Of a stretch of DNA of 64,000 nt, positions 5,550-45,913 are shown piece by piece. The position numbers and the translations under genes were made by a program. Below the pieces are notes generated by a model, which was not told the origin of the DNA, made no database searches, and saw only the letters and a program-made list of their open reading frames with translations. The stretch's first letter is position 1. The number at the start of each line of letters is the position of its first letter. Source of the stretch: a virus (taxonomy: Duplodnaviria > Heunggongvirae > Uroviricota > Caudoviricetes); the IMG/VR virus record IMGVR_UViG_3300001687_000010, one strand, 5' to 3'.

Positions 5550-5837
5550 ATGAAATATGAAAATTTTTTAAACGAAATGGGAGCATCATTACAAAAATTA
5601 GCTTTTATCACAGTTAAGGAAATATTGGCTATGGGTTTAAAAAAAGCTGATATTTCAATCTTACAAAAAGATAAAAAACTCCGGGTAAAAATGCCTGATA
5701 GACCGGCCGGTCCCACTCAAACATCTCAAAAAGGATTGGAGTTTGTCGTGGATGTTCTCGGAGAAAATAAAATTTTAATAAATAATAAAGAGAAGGATAT
5801 AAACGAGTTTATAAACGAGGTACTCGGACCAAAATAA
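5550..5837 (+). CDS. small protein with N-terminal leader MKYENFLNE (CTS-like family)
   Basis: N-terminus matches the family consensus M-x-x-x-x-[YF]-L-x-E. Confidence 0.45.
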   Translation: MKYENFLNEMGASLQKLAFITVKEILAMGLKKADISILQKDKKLRVKMPDRPAGPTQTSQKGLEFVVDVLGENKILINNKEKDINEFINEVLGPK

Positions 5838-5847
5838 GGAGCAAAAA

Positions 5848-6162
5848 ATGAGCGCATTAGATAATATTGAATTTTATCTGGCATCGGAAGAAGCCATAAA
5901 TGGTGTAATGTCATTAATTAAGGAGGAGATTCAAATATCCTCTGCGGTAATGAAAAAGACGCTTTTCCGGTTTAATAGCTTTGTGGAAAAGGCCGCTGAT
6001 ATGACCAAACTCCATAATATGATTAACCTTAGAACCAAAAAAATGAATAAAGTTGATAAACTTTTGGCTTGGTTCAGGGTACTGGAGAATGAAAACTTCC
6101 ATGATGAGGCCGCATATGCAGCGATGAGACTCAGAGAACTGGGTTATAGCGGACCTTATTAA
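5848..6162 (+). CDS. hypothetical protein
   Basis: 104-aa ORF with an AGGAG RBS. Confidence 0.4.
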   Translation: MSALDNIEFYLASEEAINGVMSLIKEEIQISSAVMKKTLFRFNSFVEKAADMTKLHNMINLRTKKMNKVDKLLAWFRVLENENFHDEAAYAAMRLRELGYSGPY

Positions 6163-6173
6163 GGGGTAAAATA

Positions 6174-6485
6174 ATGAGATTTAAAGAATATTTGATAAAT
6201 GAAAAACTAAAAAAACCATCTAACCTTAGTGGGGCAAGTGACGAAGAGTTAATGTCTTATGCCGGGGATTTTGAAAACACTAAATGGAATCCAGATAATA
6301 AAGCCGAAGTAATGAGAATAGCTAAAGCTATAAACAAAGAAATTAAAAAAAGAGGGTTCCGTGGTAATGAAATTAAACCGATATTTGAAGCCAAAGGAGA
6401 AACTTGCCCAGTATGTGGTAAAAAGAACGCAAGCGGAAAGCATATTGATAAATGCTTAAAAAAATCAGGGGAGTATGACTGGTAA
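6174..6485 (+). CDS. leader-family protein (MRFKEYLINE) with C-terminal CxxC...C zinc knuckle
   Basis: N-terminal decapeptide motif. CPVCGK...KC motif near the C-terminus. Confidence 0.5.
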   Translation: MRFKEYLINEKLKKPSNLSGASDEELMSYAGDFENTKWNPDNKAEVMRIAKAINKEIKKRGFRGNEIKPIFEAKGETCPVCGKKNASGKHIDKCLKKSGEYDW

Positions 6486-6724
6486 TGAAATTTAGAGATT
6501 ATTTAAACGAGGGAAAGAATTCCATAATTGCTAAAGGCAAAGGAAAAGGCCAGCCAAGATGGGAATATTATGATAGCAGAGGAGTAAAACATTTTGGATG
6601 GGTAGAAAAAACATCAGACAGAGGGGGAACTGATGTTACCTATTTTTTCAGAGATGAAAATACTGACGAGCTTTCCGTTGTCTCAGGAAGTATTTTGAAA
6701 AAAGCAAATAGGATATGGAAATAA
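6485..6724 (+). CDS. leader-family protein (MKFRDYLNE)
   Basis: N-terminal motif. Stop/start overlap with the upstream gene. Confidence 0.5.
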   Translation: MKFRDYLNEGKNSIIAKGKGKGQPRWEYYDSRGVKHFGWVEKTSDRGGTDVTYFFRDENTDELSVVSGSILKKANRIWK

Positions 6725-6961
6725 ATGTCGATAGCAATAGCCACTATGGGAAAATATGTCCGGTATACTTTACAAACCGGCTCACGTGAAGGCGGCGGAA
6801 CTTATGGTTATCCCGTATGGGAACCTTTTAGAAAAAGCAAGCCACAGGTGGTAGTGCGTTCAGTTAGCGTAGATGATAAATTAAGGAGACAAAAACCGAG
6901 GGTAAAAATCGAGACCATTGAAAACGGTAATGGCGAGATTAATTTACAATCATTTAATTAA
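6725..6961 (+). CDS. hypothetical protein
   Basis: 78-aa ORF. Confidence 0.4.
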   Translation: MSIAIATMGKYVRYTLQTGSREGGGTYGYPVWEPFRKSKPQVVVRSVSVDDKLRRQKPRVKIETIENGNGEINLQSFN

Positions 6962-6969
6962 GGTGAGAT

Positions 6970-7236
6970 ATGGATACATATAAAAAATATCTAAACGAAA
7001 GCAAATTGATTAGAAGCCCAAAAGATGATTTTGAAAAACGGCTTTCAGCTTTAGATTCAGAAGTAGAAGATTTTGTTATGTTTCTATTTAATCAAACAAA
7101 AAAACCAAAGAAAACAGAAGCAGATGCTTATAAAGTCCTTTATCAAACATATGCCCAAAAGATGAAGGATTTTCAAAGAGTATTAGTAGAAATCCTAAAA
7201 TATAAAGATAAGGAACAGCAAAGATTTGGTTTTTAA
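6970..7236 (+). CDS. leader-family protein (MDTYKKYLNE)
   Basis: N-terminus is nearly identical to the ORF at 7767 and strikingly similar to the T4 internal-protein capsid targeting sequence MKTYQEFIAE, as I recall it. Confidence 0.5.
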   Translation: MDTYKKYLNESKLIRSPKDDFEKRLSALDSEVEDFVMFLFNQTKKPKKTEADAYKVLYQTYAQKMKDFQRVLVEILKYKDKEQQRFGF

Positions 7237-7248
7237 AGGTGAGAAACT

Positions 7249-7767
7249 ATGATTAGAATAAATACCGCAGAACGAAAGAAACTCAAGTTTGGTGTAGCGG
7301 TAAGTGGAGTCCAGACGAGAGACTTAAACGGCGTACTTAGACTTACATACGAGGGAGTTGAATACGGGTTCAAAACCGAAGTCCTTGACGATAAATTAGC
7401 GGTTGAGATTCCGCCGTTGGATAGTATAATAGCATATGAATTACCCGAAGGTGCTAAACTTACCGGCCGTCTTGAAGTTGTGGCTGAAGATACTTATATA
7501 GTACCGTGGACGGATAACTTTTCCGTTATTAGACCTATTAAAGTCGAGGCAACAATTACCGAAGATGAGGATATACCGGAGAAAGAAATTAGCGTTAAGG
7601 CTACGGTAACTGAAGAAGAGGACGTTAAGGACGTTAAGGAAGGTCTAAAAGGCGCAATAGCTCGAACTGTAGTTAAAGCGGCCGGTACTCATATAGCCAA
7701 GAAGGTCGTGGATAAAAAGAAAAAGAAAAACGAATCTAAATTTAGTAAAGCATTAAGAGGGGAATAA
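7249..7767 (+). CDS. hypothetical protein
   Basis: 172-aa ORF with a GGTGAG RBS. Confidence 0.45.
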   Translation: MIRINTAERKKLKFGVAVSGVQTRDLNGVLRLTYEGVEYGFKTEVLDDKLAVEIPPLDSIIAYELPEGAKLTGRLEVVAEDTYIVPWTDNFSVIRPIKVEATITEDEDIPEKEISVKATVTEEEDVKDVKEGLKGAIARTVVKAAGTHIAKKVVDKKKKKNESKFSKALRGE

Positions 7768-8024
7768 TGGATACTTATAAAAAATACCTAAATGAAGCCG
7801 CTTTATCAGGCAAAACAGTATCAAAAGAAATTGAAAGAGAATTTGAAAGACTTCAAGATGAAATAGATGATTTTATGATGCATACGGAAATGGTTACAAG
7901 AGAATCTGGACCAGATATTGAAAAAATAATGATAGGGCCTTGGAATGCTTTAGATAAAGCCTATGATAATTTTGTATCCAGAGCTAAAAACTTTATAAAA
8001 GCCGCTCATAAACATACTAATTAA
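7767..8024 (+). CDS. leader-family protein (MDTYKKYLNE), paralog of 6970
   Basis: Its first 10 aa are identical to the ORF at 6970. Confidence 0.5.
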   Translation: MDTYKKYLNEAALSGKTVSKEIEREFERLQDEIDDFMMHTEMVTRESGPDIEKIMIGPWNALDKAYDNFVSRAKNFIKAAHKHTN

Positions 8025-18088: not shown

Positions 18089-18162
18089 AAGCAGTTGTCT
18101 CCTTACTATTATTTATTTATATCTGGTAAAAATAAATATAAATAGATTATGATAATTATAAG

Positions 18163-21859: not shown

Positions 21860-22375
21860 ATGAGGTTAAATAGTTACTTAAAAGAGGATAAAAAGGTAGT
21901 CGGGCTTTTGGGTAAAAAACTGGAGAAACTTAAAAAAGAGCACGGATTTATTTCTAAATCCATGTTAACCAAACAAGAGCTTGAGCAACTTAAAAAATCA
22001 GGCGGAAAGGTTCAGGAAATGGTATCAGGCCCCGGAGCACTTGATGGTAAAAGTAAACAGGCGGCTAAAAACGCTATCCTTAAAGCAACTCAAAAGTTTA
22101 CCCATAATAAACTTTATAAAGACCAATATTGGCAAGGGCCAAATGGTGTTTTTAAAGAGTTTGATAATATGAACCTTAATTGGCAACTCGATAAAAACGA
22201 ATATCGTAAAGACCGGGATTCCGGTAAAACCACAAGCAAAGTATGGGATTTTACGATATGGTTTGATGATAATAAAGGCAAACAACAAAAGATAGGCGGA
22301 CAGGTTATTGCTTCCGGTGCCGGTAGTGTAAAAGACCCCTTAGACCGATATGATTTAGTGGTAACGGTTTGGTAA
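21860..22375 (+). CDS. leader-family protein (MRLNSYLKE)
   Basis: N-terminal motif. Confidence 0.5.
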   Translation: MRLNSYLKEDKKVVGLLGKKLEKLKKEHGFISKSMLTKQELEQLKKSGGKVQEMVSGPGALDGKSKQAAKNAILKATQKFTHNKLYKDQYWQGPNGVFKEFDNMNLNWQLDKNEYRKDRDSGKTTSKVWDFTIWFDDNKGKQQKIGGQVIASGAGSVKDPLDRYDLVVTVW

Positions 22376-22384
22376 GGAGTATTT

Positions 22385-22672
22385 ATGCGATTAAAAAATT
22401 ATTTATTGGAAGTCAAAGACTGGCAGAAAAAAAATAAACGATTTGAACTTGAGGTTAAGTATAGTAGTGATGCCGATAAAATTCCAATTTTATTTAGAGA
22501 TGCGGGACTTAAAATTGGGGATGATTGGGATTGGTTAACCTCAAATATTATAGGGATAGGCAAAAAGGCATTTGATGAGGTAGAGGATTGGCTAATGTTC
22601 GGTAAAAAGAACAAAGATGGTTCATGGCCGATAATGAGTGTAGGGACAATCCCACCTAATAAGAGAAAGTAA
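22385..22672 (+). CDS. leader-family protein (MRLKNYLLE)
   Basis: N-terminal motif. Confidence 0.5.
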   Translation: MRLKNYLLEVKDWQKKNKRFELEVKYSSDADKIPILFRDAGLKIGDDWDWLTSNIIGIGKKAFDEVEDWLMFGKKNKDGSWPIMSVGTIPPNKRK

Positions 22673-24009
22673 TGCGATTTAAACGATATCTTGCGGAGGC
22701 AAGGGAAATGTTTAAAGAGTGGCAAAAATATGTGCGTGATAATAAAGAACTTACCGCCGCTGTCGGTGTCCTTGATAAAATAAATAAGTCTGGATACAAG
22801 GCTTATATAGTGGGCGGAACGGTACGGGATATTATTCTCGGAAACCTTAAACCCCATGATATAGATATAGCAACAAATGCGCCTATGGATGAACTTGGGC
22901 GTATGTTTAAAACCTTTGATATTGGCAAGTCTCGTGACTTCGGTATCGTGGTTGTAAGGTACGGCTCATTTTCCTTTGAAGTAGCGCAATTTAGGCAAGA
23001 TGGAAAATATAAAGATGGACGCAGACCAGAAGCGGTTACAATTTCAGGCAGTTTTGAGCAGGATGCGGCAAGACGAGATTTTACAATTAATGCAATGGGC
23101 ATTAACGCCAGCGGAGAAATTATTGATTATTTTGATGGACGAAAAGATATCCAAAACAAAGTGCTTAAAACCGTTGGCGACCCTCGAGAGAGATTCGGTG
23201 AGGATTATCTCCGAATGCTCCGAGCACCAAGATTTGCTTCAAAACTGGCGGCATCACAAAGCGGTGATAAGTTTGCGGATTATATTGTCCAGTTGGATAA
23301 ACTTAAACTTTTAAAATATATTCTGCCGGAAGTCGGAAACCTAAAATGGTTTAGGGAAAACTTAAAACATCATCCCGAAACAAAGGGGGAAGGTGGAACA
23401 GTATATAGTCACGTATTAGCTGCCCTGAGAAAGAGCGATACTGCCGACCCTATAAAGAATTTGGCTATATTATTACATGATGTCGGCAAGGGTGTGACGT
23501 TTGCTCAAAAAGAAGGGCTTCCTACTTATTTTGAACACGCTAAAATGGGCATCGAGCTTGTGCGCCATATTGCTAACCGACTTAGAATGAGCAATAAAGA
23601 TAAGGACGCTTTATTATTCGCAGTCGGCAACCATATGAAGTTTCATAATATCCTAAAAATGAGGCCATCTAAAGTTGCTAAACTTGTAAACGATGACCAC
23701 TGGGATGTTCTAATAGCGGTAGCCAGAGCAGACGAATTTGCACGTGGCGAAACCTTTATGTATAAAGGTGAATTTGAAAAAATAGTTGATAAGGCCATCA
23801 AAATTAAAGAAAAATTTGGTATGCCTGTCGTTAACAAACAGTTAAAACTCGTGGACGGTAAACACGTTATGAATCTTACCAGCCTTAAACCGGGGCCAAA
23901 AATTGGTGAGGTTATTCGTAAAGCAACAGAGTGGATTATGGATAACGATATTACCGACCAAGGAAAAATAGATAATTATATTAAAAAAATTGCGGGAGAA
24001 GCAAAATGA
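22672..24009 (+). CDS. tRNA nucleotidyltransferase (CCA-adding enzyme) with HD domain, carrying the N-terminal leader MRFKRYLAE
   Basis: GGTVRD, DIDIAT, RRDFTINA and RMLRAPRFA head-domain motifs. HDVGKG HD motif present. Confidence 0.85.
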   Translation: MRFKRYLAEAREMFKEWQKYVRDNKELTAAVGVLDKINKSGYKAYIVGGTVRDIILGNLKPHDIDIATNAPMDELGRMFKTFDIGKSRDFGIVVVRYGSFSFEVAQFRQDGKYKDGRRPEAVTISGSFEQDAARRDFTINAMGINASGEIIDYFDGRKDIQNKVLKTVGDPRERFGEDYLRMLRAPRFASKLAASQSGDKFADYIVQLDKLKLLKYILPEVGNLKWFRENLKHHPETKGEGGTVYSHVLAALRKSDTADPIKNLAILLHDVGKGVTFAQKEGLPTYFEHAKMGIELVRHIANRLRMSNKDKDALLFAVGNHMKFHNILKMRPSKVAKLVNDDHWDVLIAVARADEFARGETFMYKGEFEKIVDKAIKIKEKFGMPVVNKQLKLVDGKHVMNLTSLKPGPKIGEVIRKATEWIMDNDITDQGKIDNYIKKIAGEAK

Positions 24010-24305: not shown

Positions 24306-24971
24306 ATGCGATTTAAAAATTTTCTAAACGAAAAAAAATTTGCTATTGAAGTCTCTGTAAGGGACGCAAGGCGAGCATTAGCTTTGTTAAAAGATGAACG
24401 CATTCCATATAAACCAGATGGGTCTAATTATTATATTTTTAAAACTATGGATGCCCTTTTAAATGCGGAAGATGCTTTTAAACGGGGCAAAATTGAAGTC
24501 CTTGGTATTACAGAATCGGCAGAATCGGTAGAGATTGCTTATACTGATTTGCGTAAAAACAAACGAATGCGCAAAAAGTTTAAAGACCAAAAAGCCCTTG
24601 AAAAATGGCTCGATAAAATGGAAGGCAATATTATTGTTGACGCTTATCTAAATGAAGCCAAAACTATAAAATCCCGTAATGGCATATGGGGTTTTTATAA
24701 CGAGGCACATAGACGGCTCGGTAACGAAAAACTGGCAAAAGAGGCTTTCAGCAAAGCCGCTAATGCACTTATGATGGCAATGAAAGTTAAAGATACAGTA
24801 GCAAGGGATTTTCTTGATTCAAGAGGTGGGCGGCATTTGGCAGATTCTTTAACTGATGCCAATTTAGCAAATCCGAATGTTGTAAATATGATAAAACATC
24901 CGTGGCTTAAAGCAGAGTTTAAGCGTTTTATGAAAGATTACGACCCGGCAGAGTTTACGGCAAGTTTATAA
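24306..24971 (+). CDS. leader-family protein (MRFKNFLNE)
   Basis: N-terminal motif. 221 aa. Confidence 0.5.
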   Translation: MRFKNFLNEKKFAIEVSVRDARRALALLKDERIPYKPDGSNYYIFKTMDALLNAEDAFKRGKIEVLGITESAESVEIAYTDLRKNKRMRKKFKDQKALEKWLDKMEGNIIVDAYLNEAKTIKSRNGIWGFYNEAHRRLGNEKLAKEAFSKAANALMMAMKVKDTVARDFLDSRGGRHLADSLTDANLANPNVVNMIKHPWLKAEFKRFMKDYDPAEFTASL

Positions 24972-24972
24972 A

Positions 24973-25281
24973 ATGAGATTTAAACGCTATTTACAAGAAT
25001 CTAAAATGACCGATGTGGAAGCATTATCAATCTTCGGCTTAACGCCGGATGATTTAGGGAATAGTGCGCTTATAAAAAAGCGTTATCGGGATTTGGTTAA
25101 GACATATCACCCCGATAAAATCGGCAAAAATGATATGATGGTAAAAGTAAATTTAGCTTATGAGATAATTAAAAAACTTAAACCGAGTAAGATATCGGAC
25201 AAGGATGTGGAAAATCTAATGGCTGATTTATATCCCATCTTTAAAAAACCTAAACATAAATTTAAGGGAGTATACGCATGA
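24973..25281 (+). CDS. J-domain (DnaJ-like) protein with leader MRFKRYLQE
   Basis: KRYRDLVKTYHPDK...VNLAYEII matches the J-domain helix II / HPD / helix III pattern. Confidence 0.65.
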   Translation: MRFKRYLQESKMTDVEALSIFGLTPDDLGNSALIKKRYRDLVKTYHPDKIGKNDMMVKVNLAYEIIKKLKPSKISDKDVENLMADLYPIFKKPKHKFKGVYA

Positions 25282-25481
25282 GTAAATTTGAAAAATATAT
25301 TACAGAAGGTTCCATGTCATGGAGAGGGGAAAAAGCTAAAGCCACTATGGAAATTGCTTATGGAGAACCAGCCGTGAGGATTAAATCCAAAGGAATGGAT
25401 ATTAGAATATTGTTACCAAAAGAGGCGATAAATTTCCCAACAAAATTTGATACAGTAGTAGATGTAAGCGTTCAGGTATAA
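25278..25481 (+). CDS. leader-family small protein (MSKFEKYITE)
   Basis: Variant of the N-terminal motif. Confidence 0.45.
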   Translation: MSKFEKYITEGSMSWRGEKAKATMEIAYGEPAVRIKSKGMDIRILLPKEAINFPTKFDTVVDVSVQV

Positions 25482-25483
25482 TT

Positions 25484-25597
25484 ATGAGATTTAAAAATTA
25501 TCTAACCGAATCCATGAGCAGATATTGCCATATTTATAAAGCCAAAAACCGTAAATGGTATGTTGATTTGGCCGATACCGGGTGGTTATTCAACTGA
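25484..25597 (+). CDS. short leader-family ORF (MRFKNYLTE...), probably frameshifted
   Basis: 37 codons, then a stop. The +1 frame stays open for another about 35 codons, to roughly 25700. Confidence 0.3.
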   Translation: MRFKNYLTESMSRYCHIYKAKNRKWYVDLADTGWLFN

Positions 25598-25700
25598 TAA
25601 ATCAGGAAAACACCCGACACCTAAAAGGTCGCCTAATGGTTCCCCTATTAGAGAACCAAGTGCTAATAGAAGACCTTCATATAGTTATTAAGGAGTAATT

Positions 25701-25964
25701 ATGAGATTTAAAGAATATATAACTGAGGCTGATAATAAACATTGGATTACCAGTATTACAAGTGCAACTCATGAGTATATGTTTTTAGGTGGTGGATATA
25801 AAGGCAAGCCTGAAAATGATGAGGCGAGAAAAAAAGCCATTCAAATTAGAAAAAAATATCCAGAATTGAAAAGCGGGACGATTAAACAATTCAAATTTAG
25901 GGAAAATGAAATAAGGGGCAAACTTGATAAATTAAGAGAATTGCCTGAAGGAGCAAAAAGATAA
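25701..25964 (+). CDS. leader-family protein (MRFKEYITE)
   Basis: N-terminal motif. Confidence 0.5.
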   Translation: MRFKEYITEADNKHWITSITSATHEYMFLGGGYKGKPENDEARKKAIQIRKKYPELKSGTIKQFKFRENEIRGKLDKLRELPEGAKR

Positions 25965-26485
25965 TGAGGTTTACAAGGTTTCTTAAAGAAAGTGTAATAG
26001 ACGATGCTCTAAAAGTTGATGAGCCGTCTGTCCGCAGAAAATATAGCGAAGAGGGTGTAAAGAAAAAATTAGACCTTATTCAAAAAGCTATTAAAGAATT
26101 GCGTAATAACGATAAATACGATGATGATGCTAAAGACGCTATTATGGCGGATTTAGAAGATAAACAAGATAAATGGAGTAACGTGGACTCTGAAACAAAA
26201 CCACCTAAACCAGTTGCACCACCTCCTGAAGGTGAAGCGGAACCGAAAACTGATGCGGAAGTTGCGGCCGCAGAAAAAGAAGATGAAATAGCACAAAAAG
26301 AAGAAGATAAGGCTAAACAAAAAGAGGATGAAAAGGCCGCAAAAGAAGAGGAGTTGGCGAAAAAGAAAGAGGATAAGGCCAAAAAAGAAGAAGAGAAAAA
26401 GAAGAAAAACATGGAACGTGCGGAAATGGCCGCAAAAAAGAAAAACGAGGAGCGACTAATTAAGTCTAAAATCTCTTTAAAATGA
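25964..26485 (+). CDS. leader-family protein (MRFTRFLKE) with highly charged K/E/D-rich C-terminal half
   Basis: N-terminal motif. Low-complexity KEED repeats. Confidence 0.5.
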   Translation: MRFTRFLKESVIDDALKVDEPSVRRKYSEEGVKKKLDLIQKAIKELRNNDKYDDDAKDAIMADLEDKQDKWSNVDSETKPPKPVAPPPEGEAEPKTDAEVAAAEKEDEIAQKEEDKAKQKEDEKAAKEEELAKKKEDKAKKEEEKKKKNMERAEMAAKKKNEERLIKSKISLK

Positions 26486-27906
26486 AATATGAAAAGTATT
26501 TAACCCCTAAAGAAGAGGGTACTTTATACGAAGAATATATAACACATTTACTAAGCGAGGCTAAAGGTAAGCTTCGCTTTGTTGTAATAACAGATGAACC
26601 GGAAACCGATTCAGAATTATTTTATACTGCTCGCCGGATTTTAGATGAATCCGGCAAAAAGGGATATGGCGCATATGCTGTAATGGTTGACGGTGCTTAT
26701 ATTAAAGTTGAAGATGGTGTACGCACTATCCATAATGCGGATGATAAAAAAGGTTTTAAAATACAAAATGAAGATACTGTTTGTATAATCCGTGGCTCGA
26801 TTACCCGTAAAGACAGTTGGCTTGATTTAGTAACACAAATGGAAAAGGCCAATATTTGTTGCGTAAACAGTCGAGAATGTATAGAAGTATGTGCTGATAA
26901 ATATAGAACCTATCTCCGGTTGAATGAATATGGTTTAAACCAACCTAAAACCGTTTTAATCCCCAATAAAGGTTATCTTGAGCAGGCTGTCGAGAATTTA
27001 GATATTAAAAAATTCCCAATGATTTTAAAAACATTGAGGGGTTCTAAAGGCATCGGTGTTGTGTTTATTGAATCCGAAAGGTCATTGGACGCCATTGTTC
27101 AGTTAGCATATAAAAGCGATGAATGGGCAGAATTGCTCTTACAGGAGTATATTGAAACCGATAAGGATATTAGAGTACTGGTTTTAGGTGGTAAAGTTTT
27201 AGCATCCATGCAAAGAGAGGTTATTCCCGGTGATTTTAGGTCTAATTTTTCACGTGGGGGCAAAGTTAAAAAGTTTAAGTTAACCTCTTATGAGATAGAG
27301 CAATGTATTTTAGCCGCTAAAGCGGTAAATGGCGTATATGTTGCCGTTGATTTTATACCGGGGAAAAATAGGGATAAAGACCAACCGTTTATTCTTGAAG
27401 TAAACTCATCACCGGGGTCAGAAGGCATAGAAAAGGCCACTGGTGAAAATGTAATAGGTGATATGCTAATGTACTTCGAAGACCCCAAGAATCGCTATTC
27501 AGTGCCTTCTGAGGTAGGTTATAAAGAGATTGTAACCATAGAACCCTTCGGTCAGGTGATTGCTAAATTTGATACGGGCAATTCGGGTGAAAATGTTATC
27601 CATGCCGAAAATATGAAGATTAAGGGCAAAAAGGTAACATGGACGCTAAATGATAAAACGATTACAAGCGATATAATAGATAAAATAAAAATTAAAGTGG
27701 GTGGACTTCGTGATTACCCAGAGGAAAGAGTTTTAATCCATTTAGATGTGGAATTTTTAGGAACCATATATAAGGATGTACCGTTTACTCTGGATGATAG
27801 AGAGCACAGGTCACCAGTGCTTTTAGAACGCCAGTTTATGAGCAGATTAAATGTAATGGTTAACCCACGAAGACGTTATATCGTAACAACAAAATATAGT
27901 TTATAA
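26482..27906 (+). CDS. ATP-grasp enzyme (RimK/glutathione-synthetase-like) with leader-like N-terminus MKYEKYL
   Basis: ATP-grasp signatures are present: GSKGIGVVFIE, EYIETDKDIRVLVLGGKV and DFIPG...ILEVNSSPG. A 130-aa C-terminal extension follows. Confidence 0.7.
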   Translation: MKYEKYLTPKEEGTLYEEYITHLLSEAKGKLRFVVITDEPETDSELFYTARRILDESGKKGYGAYAVMVDGAYIKVEDGVRTIHNADDKKGFKIQNEDTVCIIRGSITRKDSWLDLVTQMEKANICCVNSRECIEVCADKYRTYLRLNEYGLNQPKTVLIPNKGYLEQAVENLDIKKFPMILKTLRGSKGIGVVFIESERSLDAIVQLAYKSDEWAELLLQEYIETDKDIRVLVLGGKVLASMQREVIPGDFRSNFSRGGKVKKFKLTSYEIEQCILAAKAVNGVYVAVDFIPGKNRDKDQPFILEVNSSPGSEGIEKATGENVIGDMLMYFEDPKNRYSVPSEVGYKEIVTIEPFGQVIAKFDTGNSGENVIHAENMKIKGKKVTWTLNDKTITSDIIDKIKIKVGGLRDYPEERVLIHLDVEFLGTIYKDVPFTLDDREHRSPVLLERQFMSRLNVMVNPRRRYIVTTKYSL

Positions 27907-27915
27907 TGAGGTAAA

Positions 27916-28110
27916 ATGGAAAAATATCAAAAATATTTGAAAACTAATATAGATGAATCTTTTTTTTCAGACCCAAGAAATAAGAAAAAAGCACAAGGAT
28001 GGTTTGATTCTTTATGGAGAGAAGCGGATAGCGCAGATAGAAAAGGGCAAAAAGATTACGCAGATGGTATGAGAACTGTATTACACGCATTTAGGCAATC
28101 ATTTCTATGA
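27916..28110 (+). CDS. hypothetical small protein (MEKYQKYLKTN; weak leader-like)
   Basis: 64-aa ORF. Confidence 0.35.
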   Translation: MEKYQKYLKTNIDESFFSDPRNKKKAQGWFDSLWREADSADRKGQKDYADGMRTVLHAFRQSFL

Positions 28111-28484
28111 GATTAAAACGATACTTACAAGAAGCAATAACACTTGATATAGAAATAGGCGATACTGTTTTAGGCGGAAAGTTTAAAAACAAGCGTGTTG
28201 TCGTTAAAGAGATAGGCAAAAATGAGAAAGGGGACTGGACTATCAACGGCAAGCCTTTATTAAAATTCAGGATATTACCCAAAGAAGAAGTAACAGAAGC
28301 ATCAAAAACTTGTTGGAAATGTGGCGCAAAAGAACGCAAATGGGGACATAGAACAGTTGATGGAAAGGATTATTGTAATAAATGTTTTAAAAAACTCCCG
28401 AAAGAAAAACAAGAAGAATGGTTAAAAGCGCATAAACAAAAAGATAAAGACCTTGAAAAACGGATGATGGATTTATTAAAATGA
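28107..28484 (+). CDS. leader-family protein (MRLKRYLQE) with C-terminal zinc ribbon
   Basis: N-terminal motif. C-terminal motif CWKCG...CNKC. Confidence 0.5.
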   Translation: MRLKRYLQEAITLDIEIGDTVLGGKFKNKRVVVKEIGKNEKGDWTINGKPLLKFRILPKEEVTEASKTCWKCGAKERKWGHRTVDGKDYCNKCFKKLPKEKQEEWLKAHKQKDKDLEKRMMDLLK

Positions 28485-29179
28485 GACTACAGACTTACCT
28501 AATTGAATCCAGTTTCGTACTAACGATTAAAGACATAGAACAAGTCGCTATGAAAGCAGGCGGACGCTTCCGCAGTGAGGCTGAAAAAAACGCAGAGCAG
28601 TTTTTAGACTGGTGGTACGAGAAACCGGAACTAAAAAAGGATTTAGGTTATTTTTTTAAGGCCGCAACAAAGGCAGGGCAAATGGCGTTAAAGATGCTCG
28701 GCCCCGTACCTTACTATAACAGAAATGACCTTATTAACAATATTTTAGATACGCAAGAATTCCCAACCAATCCTAAAGATTTTTTTCCCATCCCCATATA
28801 CATATCTTCAGGCAAAAATGACCGCTTTACAGTGGGTATACTTATCCATGCTAACGGTAAAAAAGAGTTATTTGAGGGCAATGACGAGGCCACAAGCGAG
28901 ACTTATGACTTAGTGGACAAGATATTAGGTAACGTCAAGCCCGTAACCGTTTATGGTTATCACGGTGAAAAGACTGTAGAGGATATACGCAGAACAAATA
29001 CCTTACCGGAAGGGCTTTATATGTCTCCCGATAAAAAATATGCGTTAGGATACTGGTCATTGAAAGAAAATCGGATTCCCTTCTCCTGCGTGGCTATGAG
29101 TAACGCCTTTAGAAAGGAATCCGATAAAGATTGGAAAGTAAAAAAAGATACTAAAATTAAAAACTTTAAGTTTATATAA
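28481..29179 (+). CDS. leader-family protein (MRLQTYLIE)
   Basis: N-terminal motif. 232 aa. Confidence 0.5.
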   Translation: MRLQTYLIESSFVLTIKDIEQVAMKAGGRFRSEAEKNAEQFLDWWYEKPELKKDLGYFFKAATKAGQMALKMLGPVPYYNRNDLINNILDTQEFPTNPKDFFPIPIYISSGKNDRFTVGILIHANGKKELFEGNDEATSETYDLVDKILGNVKPVTVYGYHGEKTVEDIRRTNTLPEGLYMSPDKKYALGYWSLKENRIPFSCVAMSNAFRKESDKDWKVKKDTKIKNFKFI

Positions 29180-40340: not shown

Positions 40341-40415
40341 GCGGGTATGGTGTTAGTGGTAGCACGATTGATTGCCTATCAGTAAGGCTCGGTTCGAGTC
40401 CGAGTACTCGCTCCA
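40341..40415 (+). tRNA. tRNA-Gly (anticodon GCC)
   Basis: Cloverleaf parsed by hand: acceptor GCGGGTA/TACTCGC, anticodon loop TTGCCTA, T-loop TTCGAGT, encoded CCA. Confidence 0.7.
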
Positions 40416-40434
40416 AAAGGTTTTGTGATGGAAT

Positions 40435-40512
40435 CGGGAATTAGTGTTTAACGGACAAGCACGAGGCATTTGGGATGCTTTAGACTCGGTTCAAATCCGG
40501 GATTCCCGACCA
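40435..40512 (+). tRNA. tRNA-Pro (anticodon TGG)
   Basis: Acceptor CGGGAAT/ATTCCCG, anticodon loop TTTGGGA, T-loop TTCAAAT, CCA. Confidence 0.65.
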
Positions 40513-40603
40513 AATAAAAAACGGACCCGAGGCGAAAGTTGCCGATGAGTCTCCAAAACTCATGTCGATGGGGAGCATTACCTCACGGGTCTGCCAGATA
40601 TAA

Positions 40604-40679
40604 TGCAGGGTAGCTTAATTGGCAAAGCGTCTGACTGTTAATCAGAAAGATGGAGGTTCGATGCCTCTCCCTGCAGCCA
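40604..40679 (+). tRNA. tRNA-Asn (anticodon GTT)
   Basis: Acceptor TGCAGGG/CCCTGCA, D-arm GCTT-AATTGGCA-AAGC, anticodon loop CTGTTAA, CCA. Confidence 0.75.
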
Positions 40680-40692
40680 AAAAATATAATAT

Positions 40693-40771
40693 GCAGAGGT
40701 AGCTCAGTCCGGTAGCAGCTCTTGGGTGAAGTCCAAGGTAGTCGGGGGTTCAAATCCTCCTCTCTGCACCA
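40693..40771 (+). tRNA. tRNA-Phe (anticodon GAA)
   Basis: Acceptor GCAGAGG/TCTCTGC, anticodon stem CTTGG/CCAAG with loop GTGAAGT, CCA. Confidence 0.7.
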
Positions 40772-40776
40772 GTTTT

Positions 40777-40852
40777 GGTCGGCTCGTCCAAATGGCAAGG
40801 ACGCTCGCCTGATTAGCGAGAAATCAAGGTTCGAATCCTTGGCTGACTACCA
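40777..40852 (+). tRNA. tRNA-Ile (anticodon GAT)
   Basis: D-arm GTCC-AAATGGCAA-GGAC, anticodon stem CTCGC/GCGAG with loop CTGATTA, CCA. Confidence 0.7.
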
Positions 40853-40864
40853 AATAAAATATGA

Positions 40865-40939
40865 TGCGGAGTAGAGGAGTGGTCACCTTACAAGGCTCAT
40901 AACCTTGAGACACGGGTTCAAATCCCGTCTCCGCTACCA
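40865..40939 (+). tRNA. tRNA-Met (anticodon CAT), 1:72 mismatch
   Basis: Anticodon stem CAAGG/CCTTG with loop CTCATAA. The T1-T72 mismatch could indicate an initiator-type or aberrant acceptor. Confidence 0.6.
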
Positions 40940-40944
40940 ATTTT

Positions 40945-41022
40945 GCTGGCATCTTCTAAAAGGAATAGGCTGCAAGCCTTTCAAGCTTGACGATGCGGGT
41001 TCGAATCCCGCTGCCAGCACCA
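40945..41022 (+). tRNA. tRNA (anticodon probably TTC, Glu) with atypical D-arm
   Basis: Perfect acceptor GCTGGCA/TGCCAGC, T-arm GCGGG-TTCGAAT-CCCGC, anticodon stem CAAGC/GCTTG with loop CTTTCAA. The D-region does not fold canonically. Confidence 0.5.
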
Positions 41023-41482
41023 GTTTCAAGGATGGTTACAGCAAACAAAATCATTCCATTGTAAGGACGTGGTTGTGGGTTCGAGTCCCACTCCGTGGTT
41101 GTGGGTTCGAGTCCCACTCCCGGCCCCAAAATTATGGCCGGGATAGCTCAATGGGTAGAGCACGAAGATAATACCATCCTGACTTTTTAAGGGGCAGTCC
41201 CTGTTGGATATTTTTGCAAGAGGGTGTCTGGCAGGGGATTAAAATTTACCCTGCATAAGGATAATTACAGCAAAGAACACTTGGTTAAAGAGGTTCAATT
41301 CCTTACTGCCCCGCCAATTTTGGACCCTAAATGATGCTAATAGGGAATTAGCACTTTGTGAAGATAGGCCAATCTTTGTATGCAAAGTCCGGTTCGATTC
41401 CGGTGCGAAGCAGTGGACTGCATTTCTGTTAGCGCAGAAATTAGTTAGGTTCGATTCCTAACCGTTTAGGGTTTAATTTAAT

Positions 41483-41558
41483 GGGCCTGTGGTGTAATAG
41501 GGAACACGGAACCCTTGCAAGGTTTAAGCTGAGAGTTCGAGTCTCTCCGGGTCCACCA
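41483..41558 (+). tRNA. tRNA-Ala (anticodon TGC)
   Basis: Acceptor GGGCCTG/CGGGTCC (two G-U pairs), D-arm GTGT-AATAGGGA-ACAC, anticodon loop CTTGCAA, CCA. Confidence 0.7.
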
Positions 41559-41741
41559 TTTGACAATTTTACGCAATAGACGTAAAAAAATTAAGGCTTT
41601 TGTGTTATGGAGTCATATTTAGAATATAATATGCGGATGTTACGAAGTAAAGTTAGAGTGGCTAAAGAGGCTAAAAAAAATGACTGGCCTGACCTATATA
41701 GATATTCTATAAAATCAGCGGAAGAATTAATTGAAGAATTA

Positions 41742-41827
41742 GGAGAGTACCTCAATTCGGTGATAAACAAGGTTTGAACCCTTGGGCATGGTAAAACATG
41801 GGCGTTCGATTCGTCTACTCTCCTCCA
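41742..41827 (+). tRNA. tRNA-Ser (anticodon TGA), class II
   Basis: Perfect acceptor GGAGAGT/ACTCTCC, anticodon stem CAAGG/CCTTG with loop TTTGAAC, long variable arm CATG-GTAAAA-CATG, CCA. 86 nt. Confidence 0.65.
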
Positions 41828-41842
41828 AAAAGGACTTGACTT

Positions 41843-42013
41843 ATGAAATGGTGCGATTTATTATGTAAGTACGCTGAATGGCCGGATAAGATTCAAGACG
41901 GGTCAAAATCCTGTCAGACGTTTGTCGGGCTATATTGTAAGAAAAAGAAGCGAATAGTTTATAAAAATCAACCTTGTGATGAGAAAGAAGAGGTAAAATG
42001 TTATGGATGCTAA
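41843..42013 (+). CDS. Cys-rich micro-protein (56 aa)
   Basis: MKWCDLLCKY...KCYGC. In frame up to the start of the ORF at 42003. Not in the ORF track. Confidence 0.35.
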   Translation: MKWCDLLCKYAEWPDKIQDGSKSCQTFVGLYCKKKKRIVYKNQPCDEKEEVKCYGC

Positions 42014-42194
42014 AGTATTACGTTGTTTAATGGAAGGGGATTTAGAAGAAAGATTTGATAAAATTACGTTTTTTCTCTGCGATTTGGTGGTAGACGCAGT
42101 TGAAAAGTGGCTTAGTTTATGCGAATGGGTCGGGGATAAAGCAATTATAGTTTTTGATGGCATATTTAATCCGGCTGAGTTAGGACCACGATAA
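42003..42194 (+). CDS. hypothetical small protein
   Basis: 63-aa ORF. Confidence 0.35.
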   Translation: MDAKVLRCLMEGDLEERFDKITFFLCDLVVDAVEKWLSLCEWVGDKAIIVFDGIFNPAELGPR

Positions 42195-42442
42195 TGGCTC
42201 ACGACTGGAAATATGTAAATATCACTCCCGGTACGAAATATTTTAAATATTTCGGTTGCCATGACCTTAGAGAGTGCCGAAAATGTGGCAAAATACAGGC
42301 AAAACACGCCGATTATATTTGGGGTCGGGTAAGTGGATATTATTGGGAACCCAAAGTCGGACGTTGTCCTACCGATAAAAAGGGAGATAAAAATGATAGC
42401 ATCAATGGCACAAGGAAGAAGATTAAAGTATCAAATGGCTAA
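42194..42442 (+). CDS. Cys-rich small protein (zinc-ribbon-like)
   Basis: CHDLRECRKCG...GRCP. Confidence 0.4.
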   Translation: MAHDWKYVNITPGTKYFKYFGCHDLRECRKCGKIQAKHADYIWGRVSGYYWEPKVGRCPTDKKGDKNDSINGTRKKIKVSNG

Positions 42443-42614
42443 ATTTACTGATGGTCAACTCAAAACAGTAAAAAAGAAATACCCTGCGCTTGCCGATATG
42501 ATTGATGAACTTTTAAAATGGCCAGAGCATATTAGAAAGGAAGATGGGTTTGACCCTGATAAATGCAATTGCCCTGATTGCCGTGATGAAAGGAAAAAAG
42601 CAAAAAAAAGCTAA
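42393..42614 (+). CDS. small protein with CxxC...CxxC (start at internal Met)
   Basis: SD AAGGGAGATAAAA directly upstream. The same SD string precedes the ORF at 42684. Confidence 0.4.
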   Translation: MIASMAQGRRLKYQMAKFTDGQLKTVKKKYPALADMIDELLKWPEHIRKEDGFDPDKCNCPDCRDERKKAKKS

Positions 42615-42683
42615 AGTTTCCCTTGACTCTGCCGATATATTGTTATAGGATAAAGGTATAACAATAAAAAAGGGAGATAAAAA

Positions 42684-42908
42684 ATGGGATGGACAAAAGT
42701 TACGGATAAAAAGTTTGCTACCGAATTAAGCGATATTGAAGCCTATCAACTGGCTACACAGGGCAAGCAAGTTCGTTGCCCGAAATGTCGGGTATATATC
42801 CCGAATATTTTAGTCGGATGCAAACACGCTATGGATAAAGAAGGTGATGTTACGCATTTTACCCTTCGACATGGTTGTGGCGCAAATTTAGTTATCTTTA
42901 ACGATTAA
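42684..42908 (+). CDS. zinc-ribbon small protein
   Basis: SD AAGGGAGATAAAA. CPKCRV...CKHA...HGCG. Confidence 0.45.
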   Translation: MGWTKVTDKKFATELSDIEAYQLATQGKQVRCPKCRVYIPNILVGCKHAMDKEGDVTHFTLRHGCGANLVIFND

Positions 42909-42925
42909 TATAAAAGGTGATAAAA

Positions 42926-43111
42926 ATGGGTTTTAATAACGGCATTATTAATAAGGTAGAAAAACCCGTACAATATCGAGTTAGGGCAGAACATACAAGC
43001 GGTAAAATGCTTAATGTACTTATTACGGGTAAAACCATTCAACAGATTCATCAAACCTTCGGTAAACATGGTTTTGTTGTTAATCGATGGTCGAAAGTAG
43101 AAGGGAGTTAG
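42926..43111 (+). CDS. hypothetical small protein
   Basis: SD AAAGGTGATAAAA precedes the internal ATG. Confidence 0.4.
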   Translation: MGFNNGIINKVEKPVQYRVRAEHTSGKMLNVLITGKTIQQIHQTFGKHGFVVNRWSKVEGS

Positions 43112-43117
43112 TTAGTA

Positions 43118-43318
43118 ATGTGCGAAAAATGCGTCAGACGACATAAAAGACTTGGCTTGCCGAAATGGTTTTCTTACGGTAAAGCCAAAGTTTATGCCCA
43201 TCGTTTAGTTAATGGGGAACCGATTCCGCTTTTTTACGATAGACGTGTTAACGTAGCAATCGAAGCGCACGTCCATAAAATCGAAAGAGTAAGAAGTAAA
43301 AATGAAAAAGTTAATTGA
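43118..43318 (+). CDS. hypothetical small protein
   Basis: 66-aa ORF. Confidence 0.4.
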   Translation: MCEKCVRRHKRLGLPKWFSYGKAKVYAHRLVNGEPIPLFYDRRVNVAIEAHVHKIERVRSKNEKVN

Positions 43319-43514
43319 CAATTGGGAAGAGTTAGGCTATAATAGTTATGAACGAACAGTCGGCACTTTTCCCGTACTATGTAATACAATTTATTGCCGT
43401 CATAGCGAATATCGAGAGTATTTAGGCGGATATTATTGTAATTTTTTAGGCCGAATGGTTGAAAACGGTCAAATTTGTAAAGGAGAAAAAGATGCCAGAG
43501 AAGCGACAGCATGA
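43302..43514 (+). CDS. Cys-rich small protein
   Basis: 70-aa ORF. Confidence 0.35.
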   Translation: MKKLIDNWEELGYNSYERTVGTFPVLCNTIYCRHSEYREYLGGYYCNFLGRMVENGQICKGEKDAREATA

Positions 43515-43647
43515 AAAGGTGATTGAAACGCCTGATTTTACAGTTGCAAAATATGTTTACACCGACCATGCAGGAAACCCGATTTATTTTGACGGTGTAG
43601 TGTACTGGGTTGTATTGCCTAACGGTATTATAGAAAATTACGGTTAA
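43492..43647 (+). CDS. hypothetical small protein (start at internal Met)
   Basis: SD AAAGGAGAAAAAG upstream. Confidence 0.4.
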   Translation: MPEKRQHEKVIETPDFTVAKYVYTDHAGNPIYFDGVVYWVVLPNGIIENYG

Positions 43648-43716
43648 AAAATAGGTGGGCTTCGGGGAACCAAGCCGGGAAAGGGATGGGTAATTTCTAT
43701 AAGAAAGGGCCAAACG

Positions 43717-43863
43717 ATGTCATCTAAAGAAATTGTCGTCAAAAACACGGAGTTAGAAGTTAACATTTATCCGGTTGTTATTTGCCCTAAATGCAATGAG
43801 GTTATGAAATTTAAACCGACTGGCAGAACGGGTGAAATGATTTGTGGGTGTAAAGATGAATAA
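43717..43863 (+). CDS. zinc-ribbon micro-protein (48 aa)
   Basis: CPKCN...CGC. Coordinates approximate. Not in the ORF track. Confidence 0.3.
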   Translation: MSSKEIVVKNTELEVNIYPVVICPKCNEVMKFKPTGRTGEMICGCKDE

Positions 43864-44218
43864 ATATGTTATCGCAATGACTATTGAAGATATGGGTTCA
43901 GGTGTTACCGATATCTATCAAGATGTTTTTAAAGGGGATAATAAATACGAAGCGTTAGGTCGGGCTTTTGAACGCTTTAGCCAAGCCGGTGTAGTCCATA
44001 AATATCAGGTCACATTGGTTGAGCGTGACGCAAGAAAAAATAGTTGGCCTGAACATCTTGATAAATACGCTAAATTTTTAAAAGAAGGGCAGAAAATACA
44101 GGCTATTAAATTCCGCCGAGAAGAAACTGGCGAGGGATTAAAGGATGCTAAACATTTTATCGACCATTTAGTTGATAAATATCCCGATATATATAAACGA
44201 CCAACTTCGGAGTGGTAA
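43856..44218 (+). CDS. hypothetical protein
   Basis: Starts at the internal ATG (MNKYVIAM...). Confidence 0.45.
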   Translation: MNKYVIAMTIEDMGSGVTDIYQDVFKGDNKYEALGRAFERFSQAGVVHKYQVTLVERDARKNSWPEHLDKYAKFLKEGQKIQAIKFRREETGEGLKDAKHFIDHLVDKYPDIYKRPTSEW

Positions 44219-44346
44219 AATGCCGATTAATGGGGGATGTTCCCGCTTGCGGTCTGTAAAACCGTTGCACGTAAAAAGAATTGTGGGTGGTTGTGCGAGT
44301 AGTTCGATTCTTCCATCCCCCACCACCAAAAAAAGAAAGGCCGATA

Positions 44347-44541
44347 ATGGATAAAGATAAGGCCGAAATTGTTATCGAAAAATGCCAAGCTCTGGCTACC
44401 GACAAAGGCGCAACTAAAGGTGAGCGAATTGTTGCTAACCATAAGGCGCAGACATTAATCGATAAGCATATAAACGATTCTAATATCTGGATAGCCGATA
44501 CCATATGGATGCCTGACGCATGGTTTATAAGAAAGGGATAA
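44347..44541 (+). CDS. hypothetical small protein
   Basis: Start at MDKDK, preceded by an A-rich SD. Confidence 0.4.
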   Translation: MDKDKAEIVIEKCQALATDKGATKGERIVANHKAQTLIDKHINDSNIWIADTIWMPDAWFIRKG

Positions 44542-44765
44542 ATGATTGATACCTTAATATTAATTGGTGGGTTTATCCTTGCTATGTATTGTGGTGTTAA
44601 AATTTGGTGCAGTAAAAGCCAGAGAGACAGCTTTTTGACCGAAGAAGAAAGGAATGCGCTAAATGGATATAAAGGACTTGATAAAGATTTGTAACACCTG
44701 TCCGTACCGGAATAAACAGGATAATATGTATTTTATGGCGTGGTGGTCACACTGCCAAAAAGAAT

Positions 44766-45041
44766 GTGAGTTATTGGCTAATGTGGAGAAGTTTAAAAAG
44801 AATTTTGAATCCTGACCTTGTTTATTGGATTGATAGCCATATTGAATATATTAAAGATTATTTTTATATTCTAAAAACCAATGTTGATTATGATTTAGGC
44901 TTACATCCAGACCATGATGCTTACAGGGAACCGGATGAAGATGAAAATATCTGGCGTTTAGAACGCATGGGTATTGAAAATCACGATTATTATAAAAAAG
45001 AATGGGTATGGGATAGCCGAAAAGATTGGGACGAAGGATAA
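44766..45041 (+). CDS. hypothetical protein
   Basis: 91-aa ORF. Confidence 0.4.
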   Translation: MSYWLMWRSLKRILNPDLVYWIDSHIEYIKDYFYILKTNVDYDLGLHPDHDAYREPDEDENIWRLERMGIENHDYYKKEWVWDSRKDWDEG

Positions 45042-45058
45042 ATGAAATGAACAAATAC

Positions 45059-45132
45059 GGCCCGTTAGTTTAGTGGTAAAATGGGTGGCTGTCGACCACT
45101 CGTTAGGGGTTCGATTCCCCTACGGGCCGCCA
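45059..45132 (+). tRNA. tRNA-Asp (anticodon GTC)
   Basis: Perfect acceptor GGCCCGT/ACGGGCC, anticodon stem GGTGG/CCACT with loop CTGTCGA, T-arm AGGGG-TTCGATT-CCCCT, CCA. Confidence 0.75.
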
Positions 45133-45153
45133 TTTAAAAATGTGAGGTGACTA

Positions 45154-45366
45154 ATGGATTGCCCTAAATGCAATTTTTGGATATCAGATAGAGTATCCGA
45201 ATTTTTTGACCATAAAAGAGGTATGGTTGTAAACAAATGGGTCTGTATAAATTGTGGCCATATTTATATCACAGAGGATAAAATCGAAGATGTACTGGGG
45301 GAAGTAAACAGCATTCCGCCAGAATATTATATAGACGACTGGGATGAAGATGATACCAGTATTTAG
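45154..45366 (+). CDS. zinc-ribbon small protein
   Basis: CPKCN...CINCG. Confidence 0.45.
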   Translation: MDCPKCNFWISDRVSEFFDHKRGMVVNKWVCINCGHIYITEDKIEDVLGEVNSIPPEYYIDDWDEDDTSI

Positions 45367-45443
45367 GAGTGTAGCCCAATTTGGCAGAGGCACATGGCTT
45401 AGAACCATGACAGTGATGGGTTCGAATCCCTCCACTCCTACCA
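45365..45443 (+). tRNA. tRNA with anticodon TAG (Leu-like); member of a paralog trio with identical 5' half
   Basis: Its 5' portion AGGAGTGTAGCCCAATTTGGCAGAGGCA matches the elements at 48482 and 57240. Anticodon stem CATGG/CCATG with loop CTTAGAA. Short variable arm. CCA. Confidence 0.55.
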
Positions 45444-45595
45444 GTTAAATTTATGTTTAGAAAAATACTAATAAAAATATTACTCAGATTAGAGTATATG
45501 GCCATTGATATTGCCGGTATATTTAACCGACTTCAGGTTAGGTTAAAAGGTACTCGATGGAAAATAGAAAAATATTGATTAGGAGAATTTGTGTT

Positions 45596-45913
45596 ATGAG
45601 TAGAAGTACAGAAGAATGGGAACAAGAAGTTATTAGCGTGTTAAAAGGAACATCCCCTGAAGAACCAATTACGGTTAGGGATATAGCCGATATTCTCGGC
45701 ATTAATGATGGCCCCAGTTGCCCTCGCACCAGAAAGTATATTCTGAGCGCAATGAAAAATAATAACGTGGCCATTGGTTCTAACCGCAAAGGATATTACC
45801 TTATTAAAACGGCTAAACAATGCCAAGAGTACCTTAACGAACTGTTAGGTCGCTCAGTGGCTTTATCCGAGCGAATCAAGATTACTTGGTACGCTTTTAA
45901 TGGAAGAAACTAA
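45596..45913 (+). CDS. putative winged-helix DNA-binding protein
   Basis: ITVRDIADILGI...; start at internal Met. Function uncertain. Confidence 0.4.
   Translation: MSRSTEEWEQEVISVLKGTSPEEPITVRDIADILGINDGPSCPRTRKYILSAMKNNNVAIGSNRKGYYLIKTAKQCQEYLNELLGRSVALSERIKITWYAFNGRN

Follow-up and report, generated by a model that had tools for sequence, protein, structure and literature searches.

A CCA-adding-type nucleotidyltransferase gene with a leader resembling the T4 capsid targeting sequence in an uncultured relative of T4

Phage T4 packages the ADP-ribosyltransferase Alt in its head and injects it; the propeptide MELITE is cut by gp21, and the enzyme modifies RNA polymerase. Further cases, with many proteins packed into the head and passed on to the host, are the ejection proteins and inner-body proteins of the giant phages SPN3US and phiKZ-like and the Dar proteins of P1. 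We know of no tRNA-processing enzyme that is packaged in this way. In T4, the internal proteins IPII and IPIII begin with the capsid targeting sequence (CTS) MKTYQEFIAE, followed by Ala. According to the summary in PMC9026906, Mullaney and Black mapped targeting by mutation to residues 4 and 7, and processing to residues 8 and 10. Many large phages encode a CCA-adding enzyme, and those of jumbo phages have been described as factors of tRNA repair (PMC7824862). Here we analyse a gene for an enzyme of this type that opens with a CTS-like leader, in a 64,000-nucleotide stretch of DNA from a tailed phage of the class Caudoviricetes (IMG/VR record IMGVR_UViG_3300001687_000010; 'the window' below means the whole of this stretch). 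The gene lies at 22672..24009 on the + strand and encodes 445 amino acids starting MRFKRYLAE, and the position, length and start of its open reading frame (ORF) agree with those given in a preliminary description of the locus.

A leader shared by unrelated genes

We defined the leader strictly, as the pattern [FYLWIM]-x-x-[YFW]-[LIM]-x-E with its Glu among the first 16 residues of a protein. By this definition it is carried by 15 of the 123 called ORFs in the window, against 0.8 expected from internal positions (P about 1e-14), so that the leader MRFKRYLAE, already remarked on in the preliminary description, is real; about five looser variants bring the window's leader ORFs to about 20. Across the loci of the phage family we collected 145 distinct leader proteins with the consensus M-[RK]-[FL]-x-x-Y-[LI]-x-E, and in 76% of them the distance from Met to Glu is exactly nine residues. 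Counting back from this Glu as position 0, which is always E, the leader has L/F/I/Y at -6, Y/F at -3 and L/I at -2, with Arg or Lys at -7 in 90% of the proteins and Asn at -1 in 41%, and conservation ends right after the Glu. Every CCA ortholog examined keeps the leader or a close variant of it (...HLYE), the apparent exceptions being gene calls that start at Met13. The same pattern had no match in about 650 ORFs of unrelated phages, taken from 15 loci that have a distant CCA gene, and its only two matches in 70 kb of T4 were ipII and ipIII. A PHROGs search gave no family for the leader proteins or for the small proteins of the head module described below.

The cargo behind the leader is diverse, including CCA, J-domain, DUF5661 and RNA ligase proteins, and these unrelated folds rule out a single paralog family as the origin of all leader genes. 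In the window the leader proteins are basic, with an isoelectric point of at least 8.9 in 16 of 20, compared with 19 of 51 other proteins (P = 0.001). The nine-residue tag is absent from the polymerase, helicase, UvsW/Y, portal, protease, scaffold and capsid genes. A DUF5661 homolog in cyanophage B23 was considered and set aside, being part of a larger protein that lacks the leader.

A short block repeated at so many gene starts might act on expression, either as a 5' coding element for translation (re-)initiation in packed operons or as a recombination joint for the swapping of cassettes. Many tagged genes indeed start in overlap with the stop codon before them and have no good Shine-Dalgarno sequence (those starting at 22672, 24973, 28107 and 28481), their first codons are A/T-rich (AGA TTT AAA), and the cargo genes are nearly all different between relatives, as cassette exchange predicts. 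Genes with a strong Shine-Dalgarno sequence are tagged as well, however, and in the 145 proteins Tyr, Leu/Ile and Glu are fixed while the adjacent positions vary. Moreover, the invariant residues are written with varying synonymous codons (TAT/TAC, GAA/GAG and TTA/CTA/CTT/TTG/ATA/ATT), which rules out conservation at the DNA level and indicates that selection acts on the leader peptide rather than on the DNA. An expression element is, in our judgement, a very improbable account of the leader, and these comparisons point to a genuine, strongly selected N-terminal module of the proteins themselves.

As a module, the leader is most like the T4 CTS. Both are found at the extreme N-terminus, span about ten residues and precede otherwise unrelated, mostly basic cargo, and in both cases the cargo genes vary strongly between relatives, as the polymorphic internal proteins of the T-even phages do. 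When the sequences are aligned on the Glu, the hydrophobic/aromatic residue, Tyr, Leu/Ile and Glu of the leader (positions -6, -3, -2 and 0) fall on Y4, F7, I8 and E10 of T4, and YLAE-AR of the CCA enzyme corresponds to FIAE-AR of T4 IPII. Ten-residue leaders come nearer still to T4, namely MDTYKKYLNE in the window and MKAYKKYINE and METYKKYLIE in relatives; the first of these, found in a cluster of small ORFs at 5550..8024, is the window's closest match to MKTYQEFIAE. The family leader differs from the T4 signal in being mostly one residue shorter, in having Arg/Lys at position 2, and in standing on dozens of genes per genome, sizeable enzymes included, where T4 has it on three to six. The T4 signal, furthermore, was mapped by mutation, whereas packaging and cleavage through the family leader are predicted from sequence.

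The phage itself belongs to a deep, uncultured branch of the T4 superfamily, for which contigs of 210-232 kb exist. The window contains UvsW-, UvsY- and gp44-like genes and a DNA polymerase homologous to T4 gp43 that reaches only 29% identity to cultured phages, and a T4-type portal (Portal_T4) is encoded in the same genome, 10 kb to the left of the window; megablast of the region against cultured phages returned no match. Since the IMG/VR contig breaks off within the portal gene, short of the phage's own protease gene, we turned to the head modules of relatives, leaving out locus L045, which is riddled with frameshifts. The phage's own head module was sought as well: a protein-database search with the portal fragment gave two fragments, and a metagenome scan gave only relatives at 41-56%. 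In the relatives the order of the module is portal, small acidic protein, S77 prohead protease, small proteins, gp22-type scaffold and gp23 capsid, with Peptidase_S77, T4_CASP and Gp23 identified in locus L046 and others, and their capsid protein shares about 35% identity with its counterparts in T4-like cyanophages. The lineage thus resembles T4 in its portal, S77 protease, gp22-type scaffold and gp23 capsid protein.

Several features of these head modules bear on the leader. At the site where T4 gp23 reads FLTE followed by A, the relatives' major capsid protein (MCP) has N-[YF]-L-x-E followed by Ala/Thr, a putative cleavage site of the same kind. The [LI]-x-E motif is about 2-fold enriched in the relatives' scaffolds, as it is in T4 gp22, an enrichment to which coiled-coil periodicity could contribute. 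Small basic proteins bearing the leader are encoded between the protease and scaffold genes, where components of the prohead core are expected. With the T4 register, the T4-type head machinery of the relatives, the tagged basic proteins within the head module and the clean controls, the preliminary description's suggestion of a CTS gains support while keeping its status as putative, and we regard a T4-type capsid targeting and cleavage signal, used on a scale not described before, as the best explanation that these sequences offer for the leader.

The same description had counted exclusively late expression of the CCA enzyme as evidence against packaging. This is inverted: late expression would not refute packaging, because CTS cargo must be made late, at prohead assembly. 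The gene starting at 18175 opens the + strand block that runs through the CCA gene, and the tandem ATAAATA at 18131 upstream of it resembles motifs before the relatives' scaffold genes; as a late promoter it is suggestive only. A scan for sigma-70 promoters and terminators did no better on the window than on shuffled sequence.

The CCA gene and its missing motif E

The CCA gene overlaps its neighbours at both ends, its start codon with the stop of the ORF before it and its own stop with the ORF after it, so it is part of a tightly coupled operon. Homology to cellular enzymes begins only at about residue 21-29, and the closest cellular head domains are those of Bacillota (44-47% identity). Pfam places a PolyA_pol head at residues 44-165 (4e-32; score 111.7 against a cut-off of 23) and an HD domain at residues 264-340 (3.8e-6; 27.6 against 22). 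The top-ranked NCBIfam model is a CCA tRNA nucleotidyltransferase at 217 bits (PRK13299, equivalog cut-off 290), followed at 140 bits by pcnB, a poly(A) polymerase; with the equivalog of E. coli Cca (NF008137) the score is 133.6 against a cut-off of 451, and similarity thus stays below the equivalog level. The closest solved structures are likewise those of CCA-adding enzymes, 1MIV and 6IBP (about 1e-40), with a poly(A) polymerase at 5e-30. AlphaFold2, run on the window protein together with 40 orthologs, gave a model too poor to be used (mean pLDDT 56, pTM 0.36).

Like the enzymes of Geobacillus (1MIV) and Planococcus (6IBP), the phage protein has a head with motifs A to D and a flexible loop. 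The loop, DGKYKDGRRPEAVTISGSFEQDAA, aligns without gaps to that of 1MIV; it is the full-length form of this loop, in front of motif B, that separates CCA-adding from CC-adding enzymes (PMC7730189). Motif C is IIDYFDGRKDI (residues 150-160), and motif D, which serves as the amino-acid template for CTP and ATP (PMC7730189), is also in place. Behind the head, the protein resembles E. coli Cca, a multifunctional addition and repair enzyme, in its C-terminal HD domain with conserved His and Asp residues: H247, H269-D270, H289, H321/H325 and D354 are invariant in an alignment of 40 orthologs, which fits an active phosphohydrolase of the kind found in the E. coli enzyme. More than 120 orthologs, at 64-87% identity, retain the catalytic and HD residues without exception. 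Assignment of the product to the class II CCA-adding-type nucleotidyltransferases with an HD domain is, on this homology, well supported. The differences from the bacterial class II enzymes are a phage-specific N-terminal extension of about 20 residues and, in the window allele, the absence of motif E.

This absence means that the gene is not the complete class II enzyme it had been taken for, although motifs A, B and D and the HD domain were found as described. The orthologs have about 475 amino acids, compared with 445 in the window, and the alignment shows a clean gap of 33 residues directly after RFASKL. At the nucleotide level it is an in-frame deletion of 99 nt: assemblies L064 and L065 keep these 99 nt and have 0 mismatches over the other 1367 nt of the gene, an 86-kb contig from ENA (L079) encodes a protein of 478 amino acids, and L081, L082 and L083 also retain the segment. 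It is kept in five otherwise near-identical assemblies as well as in about 120 orthologs. The lost peptide, GLEIEKGTEKAIQKLSTNIKELAPERIYDELVK, is a neck segment that is near-invariant in the 40-ortholog alignment and aligns to the ER...E segment (motif E) of solved CCA enzymes, and Pfam detects PF12627 in the orthologs and in the 478-residue allele and not in the window copy. Motif E reportedly stabilises the helix-turn of motif D and contacts the primer end (PMC7730189). The activity of the window allele is therefore doubtful, and it is probably an impaired, crippled form of a gene that the remainder of the population carries intact. The allele also serves as a caution, in that a check of the motifs alone would have called the window copy complete.

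How far the impairment goes can be read in more than one way. We think it rather probable that the window copy is decaying or no longer functional, or that its enzyme has changed in specificity, in which case tRNA repair would apply only to the intact alleles; the deletion removes 33 near-invariant residues, the PF12627 match of the orthologs is missing from this copy, and a neighbouring ORF of the same window is broken by a second deletion. Set against decay are the preserved reading frame and the 100% identity of the remaining gene to intact alleles, from which it follows that the 99-nt deletion arose very recently. Alternatively, it could have been introduced in assembling the source of the window, and short-read contigs of other samples break within the CCA gene, hinting at local heterogeneity.

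The second deletion removes 89 nt at 25577/25578, relative to L064, L065 and L079, and frameshifts a leader-bearing ORF of 98 amino acids (MRFKNYLTES..., window 25484-25691). Both deletions may be true variants or assembly faults. Separately, in the JGI contig L081 (3352-3841) the CCA gene ends at 248 amino acids and is followed by unrelated sequence, and several short-read contigs from other samples terminate within the gene, which suggests either population heterogeneity or an assembly break at the CCA locus.

tRNA repair, packaging and the points against

The preliminary description had linked the CCA gene to about 29 phage tRNA genes, and ARAGORN gives exactly this number. The 3' CCA is encoded in 29 of the 29, so the enzyme is not needed for maturation of the phage's tRNAs and its role would be the repair of ends, not their synthesis. 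The proposal that the phage maintains or repairs its own tRNA pool is hence plausible in the narrower form of repair. In a relative (L068, a metagenome-assembled genome from NCBI) an RNA ligase gene lies directly upstream of the CCA gene and overlaps its start, and an HD_4 protein is encoded two genes downstream, an arrangement that looks like a tRNA repair module. The CCA enzymes of jumbo phages and further large phages, annotated in phages of Klebsiella, Vibrio, Sinorhizobium and mycobacteria, similarly occur together with large tRNA sets and genes for RNA repair; they differ from the enzyme considered here in being at most 33% identical to it, and in the 15 distant loci examined no gene has the leader. 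Two tRNA genes of the array are unusually long, tRNA-Ile(tat) at 49180-49271 (92 nt) and tRNA-Lys(ttt) at 46023-46107 (85 nt), and may have an intron or an extra arm or be imperfect ARAGORN calls.

Combining these elements, we propose that the class II CCA-adding enzyme with its HD domain would restore damaged 3' ends of tRNAs, the phage's 29 and those of the host, and that it might also remove 2',3'-cyclic or 3' phosphates from these ends. During assembly, the two hydrophobic/aromatic residues of the leader would bind the scaffolding core of the prohead, a gp21-type (S77) prohead protease would cleave after [LI]-x-E, and the processed enzyme would remain in the head and enter the next cell with the DNA. 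Enzymatic activity, repair role, targeting, cleavage and injection are all predictions here, and the choice of pre-existing host tRNAs as the target is pure speculation. For the explanation as a whole, that of a CCA/HD tRNA-repair enzyme with a T4-CTS-like leader and a crippled allele in the window, our preference is a slight one.

A number of observations weigh against it. Position -6 of the leader is as often Leu as Phe, so that the 'aromatic' match to Tyr4 of T4 is approximate. The CCA protein falls below every NCBIfam equivalog cut-off, and its specificity (CCA- as opposed to CC-, A- or poly(A)-adding) therefore rests on motif reasoning, in an allele that has lost motif E. The best identities of the MCP or polymerase to cultured phages are 29-35%, and the late-promoter-like motif is a single site, TATAAATA not being enriched across the window. 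Above all, the leader stands on 21 of 23 consecutive genes in L068, including those for RNA ligase, nucleotidase and HD proteins; this and the roughly 20 leader genes of the window go far beyond any packaged set known to us, and such a number of tagged genes may mean that the tag has another shared role.

One such role would be that of an N-terminal tag unconnected with the capsid, either a handle for a protease or chaperone, of host or phage, that sets the lifetime or activity of accessory proteins, or a localisation signal. The mixture of tagged proteins (RNA ligase, nucleotidase, HD hydrolases, J-domain and ATP-grasp proteins), larger than known packaged repertoires, would suit this, and the tRNA repair enzymes of T4 itself, Pnkp and Rnl1, are to our knowledge not packaged. 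We nevertheless find it unlikely, in that it leaves unexplained why the leader matches the T4 CTS in register at the four mapped positions, why the capsid protein has the same [FY]-L-x-E at its putative maturation site, and why tagged basic proteins occur within the head module; nor has a candidate reader protein been identified. If the leader is instead a capsid address, it could be a general label by which tens of accessory proteins per genome are pre-loaded as an injected toolkit that acts before phage transcription. The label is seen on the CCA enzyme, RNA ligase, HD hydrolases, the J-domain protein and enzymes of nucleotide metabolism, and we put this extension forward tentatively, as possible and on balance doubtful.

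Gene layout and wider meaning

The features discussed above are collected in the table.

Table. Positions in the window of the CCA gene's features, other leader ORFs, the tRNA array and a promoter-like motif
Feature	Position	Strand	Basis or remark
Tandem AATAAATATAAATA, T4-late-promoter-like	18131..18144	+	31 nt upstream of gene 18175
Second cluster of small leader ORFs	5550..8024	+	two begin MDTYKKYLNE
Two leader ORFs upstream of the CCA gene (MRLNSYLKE, 171 aa; MRLKNYLLE, 95 aa)	21860..22672	+	second translationally coupled to CCA
Nine-residue leader MRFKRYLAE, T4-CTS-like; putative prohead-protease site after Glu9	22672..22698	+	sequence comparison
Motif A, GGTVRD (residues 48-53) ... DIDIAT (residues 63-68), catalytic carboxylates	22813..22875	+	aligned to 1MIV
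Full-length flexible loop, then motif B RRDFTINA (residues 134-141)	22999..23094	+	alignment to 1MIV
Motif D, EDYLRMLRAPRFA (residues 177-189; EDYLRMLR from 177)	23200..23238	+	alignment, solved relatives
Junction of 99-nt in-frame deletion (33 aa including motif E, PF12627)	23246/23247	+	comparison with other assemblies
HD phosphohydrolase domain	23410..23742	+	Pfam and ortholog conservation
Downstream run of leader ORFs	24306..29179	+	strict starts 24306, 24973, 25278, 25701, 25964, 28107, 28481
Array of 29 tRNA genes, each with encoded 3' CCA	40341..57405	+	ARAGORN

The downstream run also includes the leader ORF at 25484 that is broken by the 89-nt deletion, and degenerate leaders start at 26482 and 27916. 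The ORF at 24973-25281 (+) encodes a small J-domain protein (DnaJ, with the HPD motif) with the leader MRFKRYLQE, which may act as a chaperone hijacker. That at 26482-27906 (+) encodes a RimK-like ATP-grasp protein with a C-terminal Zn-protease-like domain, and its degenerate leader, MKYEKYLTP, lacks the Glu. Adjoining the end of the cluster, on the opposite strand (29323-30908, -), are ThiF (E1-like) and Prok-JAB genes, a ubiquitin-like conjugation/deconjugation pair. Further upstream, the protein of 273 amino acids encoded at 19873-20694 (+) has an N-terminal region, ...GTHI.H..S..HIKKVYGNTYKV..., that is shared with a head-module protein of L060 (4077-4394).

In L068 the leader run (1305-15074) contains an expanded paralog family of about 200-300 amino acids with a '..KKDC..F' box about 25 residues in. 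It is followed at 15441-15791 by a rubrerythrin or encapsulated-ferritin-like protein with a longer leader, MSILNKIDKYISE, which resembles the leader of a small protein encoded beside the prohead protease in relatives. Shortly downstream of the capsid gene, relatives encode a PrkA kinase together with DUF444 (L046 7202-10795, L048 9102-14749 and L052 7256-12491), with a third large gene after the pair in L048 and L052; the gene at 8845-10170 of L061 appears SpoVR-like by eye.

Phage CCA enzymes are already known, and the CCA enzyme on its own is an ordinary phage gene; what is new is the mass-expanded leader, as a variant of the T4 signal. Alt is the precedent for such delivery, being an enzyme with a short gp21-cleaved N-terminal propeptide that arrives with the DNA and acts at once on the host, with the difference that it acts on RNA polymerase and not on tRNA. 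The phiKZ-like, SPN3US and P1 Dar systems share with the arrangement proposed for the family the loading and delivery of multiple proteins and processing by a T4-related prohead protease, and differ in their propeptides, which are long and variable, have another cleavage motif and include no short universal tag. If the leader works as a capsid address, this family would send an unusually wide range of enzymes into the host along with its DNA. This would change the view of how 'early' functions such as tRNA repair are deployed against host defences, and would make available a natural catalogue of over 140 cargo proteins, as well as a minimal tag with which foreign proteins could be packaged into T4-type heads. 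The tag would then also supply a simple sequence rule by which injected proteins could be predicted in metagenomic T4-like genomes.

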